Assembly (NCBI GenBank): GCA_963745235.1 | Contig: CAVUXE010000046.1 | Location: forward strand, 8,030-72,029 | Source of the DNA: an uncultured Spirochaetota bacterium | GTDB lineage: Bacteria > Spirochaetota > Spirochaetia > SZUA-6 > Fen-1364 | Direction of reading: 5' to 3' | Length of the DNA: 64,000 nt | Shown here: in pieces, positions 13,892 through 55,259 of the stretch | Position numbering within the stretch: the stretch's first letter is position 1 | Layout: every line of letters starts with the position of its first letter | The notes under the pieces: generated by a model | Told to the model about the DNA's origin: nothing | Database searches by the model: none | Seen by the model: the letters and a program-made list of their open reading frames with translations, nothing else | Position numbers and translations under genes: made by a program

Positions 13892-16800
13892 ATGAAGCGA
13901 AGCAAGTCTGACTTTCAGCTTGAGCAGCTTGAGCCCAGGCTGCTCCTGTCCGCCTCGCCGCTGCTGCCCCAGGCAATGACTGCCGCCGCGTTTCAGAGTG
14001 AGAGCCCGGTGGCAGTGCAGGGCCTGGAGGCCGGGCAGCAGGCGTCCATCGACTTGCACACATCCTTCACGTACAATCCAGCCGCCAATGTGAGCGACCT
14101 GTTCGCTCGCGGCCCCGCGGAAGGCGCCGCGGCTCAGGCAGCCCCTCCCGCCGCGCCGGCCGGCAGCTCAGCCGCGGTGCAAGCGGTGCGCCCAGAGACC
14201 ACCGCCGCTGCCTTCGGAGCTTCCCTTGCGCAGCCGGCTGTGTCATCGAACACCGGTTTGGCGGTAAACAACGGCGCGGGCGCCACGCCTTCCCCCTCGC
14301 AATCAAGCATGACAGATCAGCGCACGGAAACGTTGAGCTCGGCCCAGCCCCCGCCCCCGGCGGCCGAGCAAACGTTGACCTACACCGCGGGCCCGTATGG
14401 CAGTGACGTGACGCTTCGACTCAACCCTGAGGACCCGGGCACTCTGCAAATCGTTGACGACGGATCCGGCGCGGTTGTCGCAAGCAGCCCGCTGAGCGCG
14501 GTGGGTGCGGTCCATGTAAGCGGCGCGAACAACGCGGACAATACGCTGACCGTTGATCTCTCGGTGCCCTTCTGGCTGAAGGGCGGTGTCGTGTTTGACG
14601 GCGGTACCGGCGGGTACAACACTCTCGCCGTGATCGGACCAAAGGGCGGCAGCGTCAGCTACACCGCAATGGGGACCGGCTCCGGGGTGATGTCGGTGTC
14701 CCTGGGCTCGAGCAGCACGTCCATTTCCTTCACGGGTCTGGCACCCGTGGACATCAGTGGAGGTGTTGCGTACACCTTTACGCCGGCCTCCGCCACGCTG
14801 AGCGGCGGCGGTCCGACGCTGGACCCAACCGCTGCGGTGGATATCACCATTGGAAGTTCCGCAGGCGTAAATGTTCTGACTGGCACCATCGGCGGGGTAC
14901 CGTTCGAGCAGGTCAACCTGCTTGGCGTCTCCAGCCTTACAATAGATCTTTCCGGCGGCGCCTCACCATACACGAACCCCGACACCGTTACTCTTGCTTC
15001 CAGCGGTTTTACCACCGCGGGGCTTGAGAACGTCGATATCCTTACAGGCAGCGGAAGCAATTCGATCACCATCCAGGGCGCCAGCCTTGCCCTTCCCGCC
15101 CCTGGAGGATCATTTGCCATAGACGGCGGGACAGGCAGCACCACTCTCGTTGTGGCCGGCACGTACGGCTCAGCTTCTGTGAGCGCTGCTGGCGCGACCA
15201 CGGGCACCCTGGCTTTGGACGGGTCGTCCCTTTCATTCTCGAACATCGCTGAGCTTCAGCTCCCCGCGGCTATCGGGTCGTTCACCTACCAGGGCAGCGG
15301 CGCTGAGACCATCCAGGGCGTGGCTGGCAACGCGTCCCAGGTTCAGATCTCGGGCTCCGGGCCCACCGTCCAGCTCGCTGATCCCTCCGCCGGCCTGACA
15401 GTAGAGGCGGGCTCGGTTGACCTGGTCGGAAGCTTCGGCCTCGGTGGAGCTGACCTCTCGGTCAACGCACAGACCATCACTGTTGATTCCGGCGCGGCAA
15501 TCGGCTCCTCCGCCAATACGGTGGGAACCGTCACCCTGAGCGCCACGGCTTCTGATGGCTCTCCGATTACTGATCCCTCGCTCCTCCAGGCGCAGTACGC
15601 CACCATCACCATCGACGGCTCGATCGACGCAACAGGCAGCGTCGACGCCAACGCAACGGTGACCCGCGCCGTGGACGTGAGCGAGCCCGGCGTCTTCGAC
15701 CTCACCGTGTCCTCCGCCTCCAGCGCCGGCCTCACGGTGGGAAGCGGAGCAACCCTCACCGGGTCTTCCATAACACTGGGCGCTGCCACTCAGGGGAGCG
15801 TCATGGCAGCCGATGGCGGCGCGATCACCATGGATTTTACGGAAACCTCCGCCACCGATCTCACGGGAGCCACGCTCACGGCCAGCTCCATCCAGGTGTC
15901 AGCGGGAAGCTCGACAGTCTACTCGGCAGTCGGCCTGGCCGCCACGAACGCGGTGCCCGGGAGCGCGAGCGTCTCGGTCACCGGTTCCACGCTGACGGCA
16001 AATGCGGGCGGGGTGAGCATGACGGCGCTGGACAGCGTGAGCGTCAGCGCGCAGGCAGAACCCCAAGCCCTGGATCTCGGCACCCTCTCCACATCGAAAT
16101 CCCTTTCGGTGTCCCTGGCTCGGAACGACCTTGACCGCAGCGTCTCCGCCACGGTGAGCGGGTCCACGCTGAGCGCAACGGGCGGGGACGTCAAACTGAC
16201 GGCCACCAAGGCAGACGTCGCAAGCGCCACCACGCACACGGTCACGCTGATTGACTCCACGTCCACACCTCCGCCCAACTCGGACACCGTGAGCCTTGGA
16301 GGCACTTTCTCCGCCAACCTCCTGCTCGGCGACGTGACTGCTTCCATCGATACGAGCACCGTCACCACCAATGGCACCGGTGCCATCCTGATCGACGCAA
16401 GAGACACTTCCGCCGTTGATGCCCACTCTGATCTCAGCGCCACGGATGCGCCGGGGACGCTGACGGCGGACACATCAGGGGTGGCCGCGGGTCCCTCCAT
16501 CGCCTTCAACGCGCTGGGCTGGACGTTCGGCCAGTCGTTTACGGGCTTTGCTCTTGAAACCATTAACACCCTGCTTGGCACACAGATCGGCGACTCCCCG
16601 CAACCGGTAACGAGCCAGGCGTCCATCAGCGACTCCTCGGTGAGCGCGGGCGGAAGCCTCTCGGTGACAGCGGAAAGCCAGCCGCAGCTGAACGCCACAG
16701 TAAGCAACGCGGCAACCTCCACCTCCTCCGCCCTGTACGGCGCGAGCGGGTCGAGCGCCAGCGGCATCCTGGCCAGCAACAGGGTGGCGAGCCAGGCCAC

Positions 16801-53693: not shown

Positions 53694-55259
53694 ATGAAAG
53701 GCCGATCAGTCCTCGGCGTCTTCAGAGCGCTCGCGTTCTCCTGCGTCCTGTTCAACGCAGGGTCCACAGAGGCGCAGGAAATACCGGCGCCTGGCCGCAT
53801 GATGAGCCTCGCCTCTTTCCTGGGGGACGTCGTTCGCACGAACCCCGGGGTGCGAGAGGCCCGCCTGCAGTGGCTCATCCAGACGGGGCAGGCGCGCGCG
53901 GAATGGGGCACCTACGAGCCCGTTCTCGCGGCCAGCGCGAAGGAGGAAGGGCTGCGCCAGCAGAACACGGCCCTTGAACAGTTCCAGCAGCTGGGAACCC
54001 CTCTGTACGACGAGAAGAACGACGCCTACTCCCTCGGGGTCGAGGGGAATCTTCCCACGGGGGCAAACTACAATCTGGGCGCCTCCATCACCAGGTTGCA
54101 GGATACCTACGTCGAGCAGGGACAGTTCAAATCCTTCGTGGGCATTTCCGCCCAGCAGCCCCTCCTGAAAGGGTTTACCCACGGCGCCCCGATGGGCTCC
54201 ATTCGAACCGCTTTCGAGGACCGCATCATTGCGTTTCACGAGTATCGCCGGCAGCTCATGTCCGCGGTGACCCAGGCAGAGGCGGCATACTGGAACCTTG
54301 CGTTCGCGCAGGAAGTGCTTCGCATGGACTCCGAATCCGTCCAGGTGGCCCGCGACCTCCTCACGACCGCGAAGGAGGCAGCGCTCGTGGGGAAAATGTC
54401 CGACCTGGATGTTCGCGAAGCGGAGGCGGAGCTTGCCTCCCGCGAGGCAGCGCGGGAAGACGGGCAGATTTCCCTGAACGAGGCCCTGCGGCAACTGCGG
54501 CTGCTCACCGGCGGTGCGGGGGCAAAACCAGCAAACGACAGTATCGTTGCCACCGACCCGCTTGTTGCCAACGAGGGAGGGCAGTGGGACCCGGCGGCCG
54601 AAGGCCGCAGCTACCAGGAGTGGGCCGAGCGCGCGCAACCCGATTACATGATCGAATCGGAGCAGGTGCTCAAGGAGGGCCTCCTGGTCGACCTGCAGAA
54701 GGACCAGGCTCTGCCTGAGCTCAGCCTCACGGGCAGTTACGGGTACAGCGGGCTCGGCGACACGCCTCAGGATTCCCTTGGCAGCCTTGGGAGCCAGAGC
54801 TATCCGACGTGGTCGCTCGGGCTGGAGCTCCACATGCCCCTCCTCCTGGGCGTGAAGCAGCGCAACGAGCTCGACGTGGAGGAGCTCAAGAGGGAGCTCG
54901 CAACCGTGCGGCTCGCCGCGGTGCGCCAGCAAATGACAGACACCATCGTCTCCCTTGTCCAGAGCATCGCGACACTCCGTGAGCATATCGACAACCAGCG
55001 AACGGTGGTCCAGGTCAAGCGCGACCTCCTGGCTGTCCAGACCGAACGGCTGCACGGCGGGACGGCCAGCCTCCTGGAAGTCTACAACGCCGAGGATGAG
55101 GTGCGGCAGGCCAGGCAGCACGAGCTGGAGGCAGTGGTCCGTTTCCGGCAGGCGTTGATGGAGCTGGGCCGGGCGAGTGGAGCCGTGCTCAGGGACCATG
55201 CCCTGGAACAGCTGAAGGACGGCCAGGTTGAGCTGAGGGAGGACCTGCGGTCACGGTAG
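53694..55259 (+). CDS. TolC-family outer membrane channel
   Basis: GGAGG RBS, signal peptide, QQPLLKG, AYWNL, LPELSLTGSYG, WSLGLELHMPL, ERLHGGTASLLEV; divergent from the export operon. Confidence 0.88.
   Translation: MKGRSVLGVFRALAFSCVLFNAGSTEAQEIPAPGRMMSLASFLGDVVRTNPGVREARLQWLIQTGQARAEWGTYEPVLAASAKEEGLRQQNTALEQFQQLGTPLYDEKNDAYSLGVEGNLPTGANYNLGASITRLQDTYVEQGQFKSFVGISAQQPLLKGFTHGAPMGSIRTAFEDRIIAFHEYRRQLMSAVTQAEAAYWNLAFAQEVLRMDSESVQVARDLLTTAKEAALVGKMSDLDVREAEAELASREAAREDGQISLNEALRQLRLLTGGAGAKPANDSIVATDPLVANEGGQWDPAAEGRSYQEWAERAQPDYMIESEQVLKEGLLVDLQKDQALPELSLTGSYGYSGLGDTPQDSLGSLGSQSYPTWSLGLELHMPLLLGVKQRNELDVEELKRELATVRLAAVRQQMTDTIVSLVQSIATLREHIDNQRTVVQVKRDLLAVQTERLHGGTASLLEVYNAEDEVRQARQHELEAVVRFRQALMELGRASGAVLRDHALEQLKDGQVELREDLRSR

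Follow-up and report, generated by a model that had tools for sequence, protein, structure and literature searches.

How proteins of many thousands of residues leave the bacterial cell is an open question in particular for those that carry LEPR-XLL, a curated but hardly studied tag that occurs on some of the largest bacterial proteins. This question is raised by a locus of an uncultured Spirochaetota bacterium that lies in a stretch of 64,000 nucleotides (assembly GCA_963745235.1, contig CAVUXE010000046.1, positions 8,030 to 72,029; G000:C46:8030-72029 in our numbering), which is called the window in the following. The genome holding the window, G000, is a draft of 104 contigs with a completeness of 85.7% and a contamination of 5.9%. 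In the window, a giant gene on the plus strand (13892–46046) encodes a repeat protein with an N-terminal LEPR-XLL leader and runs tail to tail into a convergent operon on the minus strand, the genes of which encode periplasmic adaptors of the membrane fusion protein (MFP) type, an intramembrane protease of family M50 fused to one of these adaptors and a reduced SecA-like ATPase. Here, we describe that this set of genes, referred to as the cassette, is linked to the LEPR-XLL tag across bacterial genomes, a connection in which our confidence is high. With moderate confidence, based on structure prediction, we propose that the fusion protein binds the leader by a RiPP recognition element (RRE; RiPP, a peptide made by the ribosome and modified after translation) and presents it to the protease site, and our confidence is lower for the transport mechanism as a whole. 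On balance we lean towards the reading that the locus comprises a substrate together with its dedicated maturation and export apparatus.

The giant protein starts at position 13892 with the N-terminus MKRSKSDFQLEQLEPRLLLSAS. The NCBIfam model NF012209 (LEPR-8K / LEPR-XLL) matches its residues 8–25 with 29.4 bits against a cut-off of 17, in agreement with an earlier reading made from the nucleotide sequence alone (the sequence-only reading), which had noted a LEPRLLL motif at this end; it is the only match to this model in the whole genome. The leader motif itself, residues 7–24 (DFQLEQLEPRLLLSASPL; 13910–13963, plus strand), is delimited by an alignment of 31 leaders and by the predicted interface with the RRE-M50 part of the fusion protein. 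The alignment yields the consensus F-x-L-E-x-L-E-P-R-x-L-L-S-A with mostly A at its position 5 and with basic residues ahead of it; L13, E14, and R16 are invariant while E11, L19, and S20 are nearly so. The best 19-residue hydropathy window scores 1.06 in a crude scan, by which the protein, as held in the sequence-only reading, would tentatively have no Sec signal. In the literature, a full-text search for the name of the tag returned passing mentions only, in addition to a 2026 preprint using a spelling variant, which in its accessible part reports "LEPRxLL" N-termini on proteins of 36,806 and 20,647 residues of the Chlorochromatium epibiont and states that they have no known transport signals; it also speaks of a "recently acquired secA". 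No frame as large as the published 36,806-residue protein was present in our sample of 121 Chlorobiaceae genomes. LEPR-XLL open frames of 16,521–20,466 residues were observed in Verrucomicrobiota (G340:C142, G365:C1, G349:C5, G367:C23), and one of these genomes, G365, contains two LEPR-XLL frames back to back, of 13,828 and then 6,237 residues.

Does the cassette belong to the tag, or do both merely meet at this locus? Co-occurrence of the two had been set beforehand as a test by the sequence-only reading. Relatives of the fusion protein were searched in contigs of one genome per species, yielding at least 598 stretches, at least 582 of them confirmed, and the best 80 were kept as loci. In ten cassette genomes from varied phyla NF012209 scored above its cut-off in nine, and in 14 control genomes it did so in none. 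This was extended to lineage samples of 301 Verrucomicrobiota, 121 Chlorobiaceae, 251 Planctomycetota and 301 genomes of the phylum of the window, in which a fusion match was taken as strong at E ≤ 1e-140 (Verrucomicrobiota), ≤ 1e-180 (Chlorobiaceae), or ≤ 1e-100 (Planctomycetota). Among the Verrucomicrobiota, 23 genomes have a LEPR match and 24 a strong fusion match; 22 have both, one has LEPR only, two have the cassette only, and 276 have neither. The LEPR-only genome (G536) is a weak match (E 9.6e-4), and in one of the two cassette-only genomes (G527) the open reading frame (ORF) adjoining TolC opens with ...FDLEQLEARILLSGAP, a LEARILL variant of the leader that the model missed. The Chlorobiaceae contain nine genomes of either kind, with both features in seven, LEPR only in two, the cassette only in two and neither in 110, and the LEPR-only pair both encode a divergent fusion of approximately 30% identity. 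In Planctomycetota a LEPR match is present in 24 genomes and a strong fusion match in 29, plus one fragment; both occur in 22 (including one contig-end fragment with 47% identity), LEPR only in two, the cassette only in eight, and neither in 219. If fusion matches down to E ≤ 1e-30 are counted in this lineage, all 24 LEPR genomes have one, compared to 43 of the 227 genomes without LEPR. Finally, in the own phylum of the window a single genome of 301, G000, carries LEPR and a strong fusion match, and the other 300 carry neither.

Physical proximity agrees with these tables. A strict motif scan found a giant ORF with a LEPR leader abutting the cassette in five of the 80 loci (L004, L007, L014, L033, and L060), and in many more of them large ORFs run off the locus so that their N-termini are out of view; matches of the motif expression in L015, L064, and L067 were set aside, being not N-terminal and without the F-x-L-E context. 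According to arithmetic from the coordinates, at least 12 Verrucomicrobiota genomes have cassette and LEPR gene on one contig at a distance of about 2 to about 24 kb, and the same applies to G608. Thus, of the proposal that a cassette free of ATP-binding cassette (ABC) transporters serves LEPR-XLL proteins through an N-terminal targeting signal, the genomic link is borne out by co-occurrence and frequent adjacency. The further idea that the system is dedicated to giant proteins stands in its first part, service to LEPR-XLL proteins, and falls in its second: Planctomycetota have up to 14 LEPR-XLL matches per genome, many of them on frames of 300–2000 residues, some perhaps cut by contig ends, and so the pathway is not reserved for giants. 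A complete Phycisphaerales chromosome (G304) was observed to encode a second pair of M50-HlyD and SecA-like genes (G304:C1:1586462-1590279) besides its cassette at L044, and its sole LEPR match is separated by 1.5 Mb from the cassette at L044 and by about 370 kb from that further pair.

Of which parts is the cassette composed, and which of them are constant? At the locus of the window the operon reads MFP, GAF-MFP, RRE-M50-MFP, SecA-like ATPase, and a protein of 213 residues, with gaps between genes from -4 to 16 nucleotides. The first gene (52737–53657, minus strand) encodes an MFP periplasmic adaptor with HlyD_D23 and HlyD_3 matches and a match to RND_mfp of 110 bits against a cut-off of 94.9. 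It overlaps by 4 nucleotides with the GAF-MFP gene (50863–52740, minus), the product of which combines a cytoplasmic GAF domain, one transmembrane segment (approximately residues 361–379), and a periplasmic adaptor. After a gap of 9 nucleotides follows the fusion gene (48691–50853, minus), then, after 4 nucleotides if translation starts at M64, the SecA-like gene (46698–48686, minus), and after 16 nucleotides the gene of the 213-residue protein (46040–46681, minus), which has a signal peptide and overlaps at its 3′ end with the stop codon of the giant gene (46044–46046). Divergent from the operon, a TolC-family outer-membrane factor is encoded on the plus strand (53694–55259; OEP, 108.7 bits; frame 52962–55259 with the likely start at 53694). 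The tight gene order, the tail-to-tail arrangement with the giant gene, the divergent TolC and the three HlyD-like adaptors (in the MFP, the GAF-MFP, and the fusion) were all recognized correctly from the sequence alone, and so was the absence of ABC and RND transporters and of SecY. Domains of ABC, resistance-nodulation-division (RND), or major facilitator superfamily (MFS) transporters or of SecY were found in none of the window ORFs that were domain-scanned, nor were a C39 peptidase or an ABC transporter, the features of peptidase-containing ABC transporters (PCATs). All MFP and TolC proteins of the locus fall below the cut-offs of the subfamily models type_I_hlyD and type_I_sec_TolC, with three HlyD-type domains and an OEP domain present, and no model of NCBIfam release 20 except for the generic RND_mfp was passed by any of the four cassette proteins.

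Relatives of the fusion, among the matches listed, carry the labels of Spirochaetota, Verrucomicrobiota, Methylomirabilota, Fibrobacter, Chlorobiaceae, and Phycisphaerae, and furthermore of several Proteobacteria and of one Bacteroidota-labelled genome, so that by these labels the cassette occurs in at least eight phylum-level groups; the nearest relatives (L001, L002, and L021) are Spirochaetota-labelled. Sixty-nine loci offer at least 2.2 kb of sequence for this comparison, and in 65 of them the SecA-like gene follows directly downstream of the fusion on the same strand; 11 loci were too short to judge. For complete-locus counts we used those 44 loci in which the fusion gene is flanked on either side by at least 6 kb: 40 contain the SecA-like gene, 40 GAF-HlyD, 34 MFP, and 16 TolC, while the 213-residue protein is found only in Spirochaetota-labelled relatives (2 of the 44). 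Based on these counts, the invariant core of the cassette is the fusion together with the SecA-like gene, the TolC gene is often unlinked, and the 213-residue protein is lineage-specific. TolC, which had been proposed as a member of the locus, is thus present here and linked to the cassette in only a part of its relatives. The 213-residue protein has no Pfam or NCBIfam match; its nearest Atlas clusters of a named family are small outer-membrane beta-barrels (0.90–0.91), and it is possibly such a small barrel itself.

The fusion protein of 720 residues, assigned from its domains and a structural model, unites three parts: an RRE (approximately residues 14–110), a membrane protease (approximately 147–448) with H214, E215, H218, and D316, and an adaptor (450–718). 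The protease part matches M50 (PF02163) with 29.2 bits against a cut-off of 27.2, and the four residues, which form the HExxH and NPxxxxDG motifs, are unchanged throughout an alignment of 30 fusions that span several phyla. In the AlphaFold model (pLDDT 82.9) a domain of strands and helices at the N-terminus is followed by a helical membrane region (147–448) and a C-terminal adaptor. In a Foldseek search, the C-terminal 270 residues resemble MacA and MexA (E 2.5e-12 to 1e-10), and with the whole model as query only adaptor matches were obtained. The N-terminal domain has no Pfam match, and a profile of it gave no match to PDB sequences at E ≤ 10. This domain was judged by its fold. Folded alone (pLDDT 80.1) and aligned by VIA-align to 48,161 chains, it finds the lasso peptide protein B1 with bound leader (6jx3_B) as the top RRE (Z 9.1, rmsd 2.9, 84 aligned residues), followed by TbiB1 (5v1u_A, 8.7), PqqD (8.3), TigE (8.3), ThcOx (7.4), and the PbtF RRE (7.3), with MibB, MccB, and NisB lower. 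Since best Z values of 7–8 are common with VIA-align and since unrelated enzymes with winged-helix appendages (8hkr, 9s2t) also reach about 9, the case for an RRE is carried by the succession of RRE entries and by the near-complete coverage of the small RRE chains. Moreover, residues 33–408 of the fusion match the RiPP leader protease model NF041824 (daptide_HExxH; E 6.5e-53) with 180 bits, below the cut-off of 300.

If the N-terminal domain is an RRE, does it bind the leader of the giant protein? A complex of fusion residues 1–430 (30-row alignment) with leader residues 1–60 (31 rows) was modelled and gave ipSAE values of 0.71, 0.72, and 0.71, while none of three controls exceeded 0.00. Of 80 solved complexes 58 reach the mark used for this score, and of 110 mismatched pairs 2 do, which is a rough guide here as the alignments were custom-made. 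The runs share at least 54% of their contacts and the pLDDT of the partner is at least 46. In the modelled interface, leader residues 7–24 are in contact with fusion residues 51–59 (beta-3), 88–105 (alpha-3), and 207–218 (HExxH), and further with 242–251, 299–316 (including D316), and 328–332. The predicted pose of the leader is the canonical binding mode of RREs, winged-helix domains of three strands and three helices that take up leaders along beta-3 and alpha-3. Together with the fold and the invariant motifs, the model supports the assignment as RRE-M50 protein that had been made from the sequence alone.

Co-occurrence and modelled leader binding suit a sorting protease equally well, and they have to be weighed against the alternative that the cassette matures or regulates LEPR-XLL proteins, for example in sorting, anchoring, or release, as exosortase or rhombosortase do, or in signalling of the site-2-protease kind, and that transport takes another route. 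M50 proteases are known in signalling. They also act as leader proteases in RiPP pathways, namely those of epipeptides and pearlins, and an RRE assists the leader protease of lasso peptides, as described in the accessible part of PMC10885120. However, three periplasmic adaptor domains, an often-linked TolC, and a SecA-family ATPase are hard to explain without transport, and we regard a cassette confined to maturation or regulation as rather improbable.

The second constant component of the cassette is the SecA-like protein, and the question arises whether it can act as SecA does. Its domains are clear, with SecA_DEAD at 305 bits, SecA_PP_bind at 85 bits, and P-loop_SecA at 175 bits. It aligns with the chain of Bacillus subtilis SecA over residues 12–552 (E 1.9e-125) and ends about 60 residues later; it covers positions 6–474 and 513–564 of the 787 positions of the SecA model and contains no helical scaffold, wing, two-helix finger, or C-terminal tail. 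The protein therefore consists of the nucleotide-binding domains NBD1 and NBD2 and the preprotein cross-linking domain (PPXD) only, with nothing beyond approximately position 564 of the model, as the sequence-only reading had it when it spoke of a truncated SecA. It reaches 554 bits against the SecA equivalog (cut-off 800) and 338–480 bits against four SecA2 models (cut-offs 725–1100). A separate full SecA (1094 bits, model positions 1–787) is encoded in the same genome, and a full SecA besides the truncated copy is found in four of five other cassette genomes. The SecA-like protein has 38.8% identity to the SecA of its own genome, approximately 37–56% to cassette copies of other phyla, and 64–78% to Spirochaetota-labelled copies. 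In a quick IQ-TREE phylogeny of 42 rows, which includes one row (L125) filling less than half of the columns and four rows on long branches, five canonical SecAs and one third paralog stand behind a starred branch (99), with all cassette copies outside. This third homolog was observed in the closest relative (L128, G301:C6:186947-188728; model positions 11–638, 614 bits, frame of 856 residues); it is located on a long branch and groups with the canonical SecAs in the quick tree.

Canonical SecA uses the two-helix finger and the wing at SecY, and SecA2-only systems of Gram-positive bacteria use the housekeeping SecYEG. This precedent, the presence of a canonical SecA in the genome with a presumed SecYEG (which was not searched for), and the conservation of NBD1, PPXD, and NBD2 in the SecA-like protein suggest a route in two steps, in which the truncated SecA directs LEPR-XLL proteins to SecYEG, the fusion acts as a leader peptidase, and the adaptors hand a periplasmic intermediate to TolC; sister systems that have no SecA-like gene show that the adaptor core can take other inputs. 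Nevertheless, we consider this route unlikely. The region of the two-helix finger and the wing is missing from the SecA-like protein, all SecA2 models of NCBIfam stay below their cut-offs, the gene is translationally coupled to that of the fusion in nearly all loci that could be judged, and the leader site is predicted on the RRE, which is cytoplasmic.

How might substrate and apparatus work together in the reading that we prefer, a dedicated export apparatus? The substrate would be the protein of approximately 10.7 thousand residues, made of filamentous tandem repeats, FG-GAP, and RTX repeats behind its LEPR-XLL leader, and the apparatus would consist of the cytoplasmic RRE, the M50 intramembrane protease and the MacA/MexA-like periplasmic adaptor joined in the fusion, two more adaptors, the reduced SecA, and TolC. 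In the structural model, the RRE would take up F-x-L-E-x-L-E-P-R-x-L-L-S-A by strand addition and place the part downstream of it on the HExxH site, where the leader would presumably be cleaved. The SecA-like ATPase, which retains motor and preprotein clamp without the parts that face SecY, would then push the chain from N- to C-terminus into the assembly of M50 protease and adaptors, so that we infer the ATPase to be the motor, the protease the membrane gate, and adaptors with TolC the conduit. By homology, the MacA-like hairpins of the adaptors would dock on TolC for passage across the outer membrane. Given an N-terminal signal and a processive motor, export could, speculatively, begin before translation ends. 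We tentatively extend this to the suggestion, which we hold to be somewhat doubtful at present, that the cassette represents a widespread and distinct double-membrane secretion system that exports LEPR-XLL proteins from N- to C-terminus, possibly during translation.

In another explanation, the giant protein belongs to the classical RTX substrates of type I secretion; a C-terminal signal would direct its export through an unlinked set of ABC transporter, MFP, and TolC, and the cassette would serve something else such as small peptides. RTX calcium-binding nonapeptide repeats (PF00353, HemolysinCabind, 53.1 bits; 44886–45155, plus strand) are indeed present about 300–385 residues from the C-terminus, and the M50 part resembles RiPP leader proteases by its sub-threshold daptide_HExxH match. 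However, no PrtD- or HlyB-type exporter scores above cut-off in the genome, which is 85.7% complete (best 224 vs 510 and 350 vs 725 bits), cassette and LEPR tag are tightly linked in the four lineage samples, and the predicted binding uses the leader of the giant protein itself, which makes a type I route very improbable.

Several observations weigh against a dedicated, SecA-driven export apparatus. The RTX repeats near the C-terminus of the substrate are like those of classical type I substrates. As for the genomic link, G609 and eight Planctomycetota genomes with a strong cassette match have no LEPR match, the E-value bands for strong matches were set after the score distributions had been viewed (these were clearly or roughly bimodal), and the genomes within each sample are kin and many of them incomplete, so that the counts are not independent and are no statistical test. 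As for leader recognition, a Foldseek search found no RRE for the N-terminal domain within E ≤ 0.001 (best value 9e-3; TbiB1 with leader 1.4e-2), the predicted fold of the leader itself is uncertain (pLDDT below 50), and the score of the complex may in part reflect likeness, because RRE-leader complexes have already been solved. As for the motor, the SecA-like gene is missing in the well-flanked loci L006, L008, L015, and L038, none of eight loci of sister M50-HlyD paralogs (L091–L098) has one, and in two Chlorobiaceae genomes a divergent M50-HlyD accompanies a weaker LEPR match, with no SecA-like gene nearby. Since the sister systems and the divergent Chlorobiaceae systems have no SecA-like gene, the core of adaptors and protease functions without it, and the SecA-like protein may have been added to it later instead of being the core motor. 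In one of the sister loci (L098, G594:C19:44000-63999), TolC, MFP, GAF-HlyD, and M50-HlyD are followed by a gene for a PQQ/BamB-like propeller of 950 residues, and no SecA-like or ATPase gene was present among the five ORFs scanned there.

The two divergent Chlorobiaceae systems are those at L119 (G647:C1:400000-419999) and L120, where the LEPR match of 27.5 bits is on a frame of 6,686 or 3,311 residues and the M50-HlyD has approximately 30% identity; from the coordinates, the M50-HlyD gene of G647 lies about 10 kb beyond the LEPR gene's end. These two loci may represent a SecA-less variant of the pathway.

The gene of the substrate itself requires comment. The sequence-only reading had described a gene of about 32 kb, and while this span is correct (13892–46046), it is not a single ORF but five, in frames 2, 0, 1, 2, and 0, joined in the middle of repeats by four +1 shifts. 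Each shift corresponds to one surplus base on the plus strand: at 22107 (frame 2 to 0), at 33130 (0 to 1), at 35065 (1 to 2), and at 38004 (2 to 0), placed by ORF frames, DNA, and metagenome contigs. When the four bases are discounted, 32,151 nucleotides or 10,717 codons result, encoding a protein of approximately 10,716 residues, and each of the five pieces is free of stops between the junctions. The frame breaks were compared to Logan contigs of four soil or peat metagenomes (X1–X4, from three studies) over 21900–38200, of which not all are independent, as one run may be the source of the window itself; no RNA run was among those listed as containing the stretch. The base at 22107 is missing in X1, X3, and X4 at full depth and in X2 in one contig only (depth 7.39 of summed 80.2); that at 33130 is missing in X3 and X4 and present in X2 (depth 4.1), X1 having no cover; that at 35065 is missing in X2, X3, and X4; and that at 38003/38004 is missing in X1, X2, and X4. 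The metagenome contigs carry differences of their own, as judged from a further gap of one base at 28580, confined to X1 (5.75 of 5.75; not in X2 and X3) and from paired, frame-neutral indels at 36347/36349 (X3) and 37959–37972 (X1, X2, and X4). The nearest ortholog (G301:C15:29977) is a single open frame of 10,237 residues in the same tail-to-tail layout as in L021.

Because contigs of other metagenomes do not have the breaks and the ortholog is open, the four breaks are most likely errors, namely single-base insertions peculiar to this assembly. The opposite reading draws on the four frame breaks in the window and sees in the giant gene a decayed pseudogene and in the locus a relic. We reject it as most improbable, given that each break is one surplus base that contigs of two or more other metagenomes do not have, that all pieces are open between the breaks, as is the G301 ortholog over its whole length, and that the cassette genes are all intact. 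Judged by its sequence, the giant gene is probably intact in nature and functional. The four insertions were observed inside one gene of 32 kb, and the neighbouring genes examined have no obvious breaks, which suggests that consensus errors are concentrated in the repetitive giant gene; other long genes of the assembly may contain similar errors. The domains recognized in the giant protein are LEPR-8K, filamentous tandem repeats of the type LktA_tand_53, FG-GAP_2, and RTX HemolysinCabind, with no Pfam match in its first 6,399 residues.

Upstream of and divergent from the giant gene, a gene with a BTAD domain (11873–13156) and one for an AAA_16 ATPase of 876 residues (9255–11885) are located on the minus strand (together 9255–13156). 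This pair resembles SARP/AfsR-type regulators and may regulate the giant gene locus. A sigma-70 family factor (55323–56180, plus strand) downstream of TolC is mentioned as context only. In the 80 loci, which seldom reach the 5′ side of giant genes, a sigma match lies near the cassette in one (L011) and BTAD or AAA_16 in none; these genes are thus not supported as parts of the system. The G+C content was observed to be 64–68% over giant gene and cassette (window positions 14000–54000) and 57–62% in both flanks. This contrast, together with the absence of both features from all 300 further genomes sampled in the phylum, fits a horizontal acquisition of the whole locus.

To which known system does the cassette come closest? 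By analogy, its way of working would be nearest to that of PCAT exporters that cleave a leader and act with MFP and TolC, but without C39 peptidase and ABC transporter. In CvaAB-TolC, the type known from colicin V, the leader is likewise cut by a protease built into the exporter, and adaptor and TolC complete the path. The mechanism of PCATs is treated in the accessible part of PMC10885120. In contrast to PCATs, the cassette has RRE and M50 instead of C39 and a SecA paralog instead of an ABC transporter, its protease is fused to the adaptor and not to the pump, and its cargo has thousands of residues and is not a peptide. Type I secretion of RTX proteins in its classical form (HlyBD-TolC, LapA) shares very large RTX repeat proteins, MFP, and TolC, whereas here no ABC transporter is found in the window or above cut-off in the genome and the signal sits at the N-terminus instead of the C-terminus and is probably cleaved. 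Accessory Sec systems (SecA2/SecY2, SecA2-only) likewise employ a second SecA paralog for a narrow set of substrates; the cassette protein differs from these in staying below all SecA2 cut-offs, in having no SecY2 in the window and neither wing nor two-helix finger, and in being coupled to adaptors and TolC in diderms. With RRE-containing RiPP systems (6jx3, 5v1u, PqqD) and M50 RiPP proteases (daptide, epipeptide, pearlin) the cassette has in common the RRE fold, the HExxH and DG motifs and, by prediction, the binding of the leader strand on beta-3 and alpha-3. Unlike them, it falls below the daptide equivalog cut-off, its protease is fused to a periplasmic adaptor, its substrate is giant, and the locus encodes no modification enzymes. 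The C-terminal part of the fusion resembles the adaptors of the MacAB-TolC and MexAB-OprM pumps, but no ABC or RND partner is present here and the membrane part is a protease. According to the accessible part of a preprint (bioRxiv 10.1101/2023.11.21.568195), giant proteins of Omnitrophota and Actinobacteriota contain SecA DEAD and preprotein-binding domains within them, which is likewise a SecA motor without scaffold and wing and is proposed as an aid to export; there, however, SecA is fused inside the giant protein near type II secretion-like genes, whereas here it is a separate gene with a LEPR-XLL substrate. A literature search on SecA, HlyD, M50, TolC, giant proteins, and SecA paralogs, in which subscription journals are poorly covered, found no description of the cassette. 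Taken together, it is probably a tripartite TolC-dependent exporter in which the energiser is a different one and an RRE-M50 leader peptidase is built in, and its route was probably undescribed before.

For the LEPR-XLL family this means that the tag is now tied to a specific conserved gene set, and that a concrete model is available in which the leader would lie in the groove of the RRE beside the M50 site. For genome annotation, a simple rule follows: the genes named SecA and HlyD in such cassettes are neither housekeeping nor efflux genes. If the SecA paralog is the motor, it would represent a fourth energiser for tripartite TolC systems beside ABC, RND, and MFS transporters. If export indeed proceeds from the N-terminus first, there would be no need to complete a chain of 10,000–36,000 residues before its secretion starts, and the pathway would explain how the largest known bacterial proteins, including those of 20,647 and 36,806 residues of the Chlorochromatium epibiont, leave the cell.

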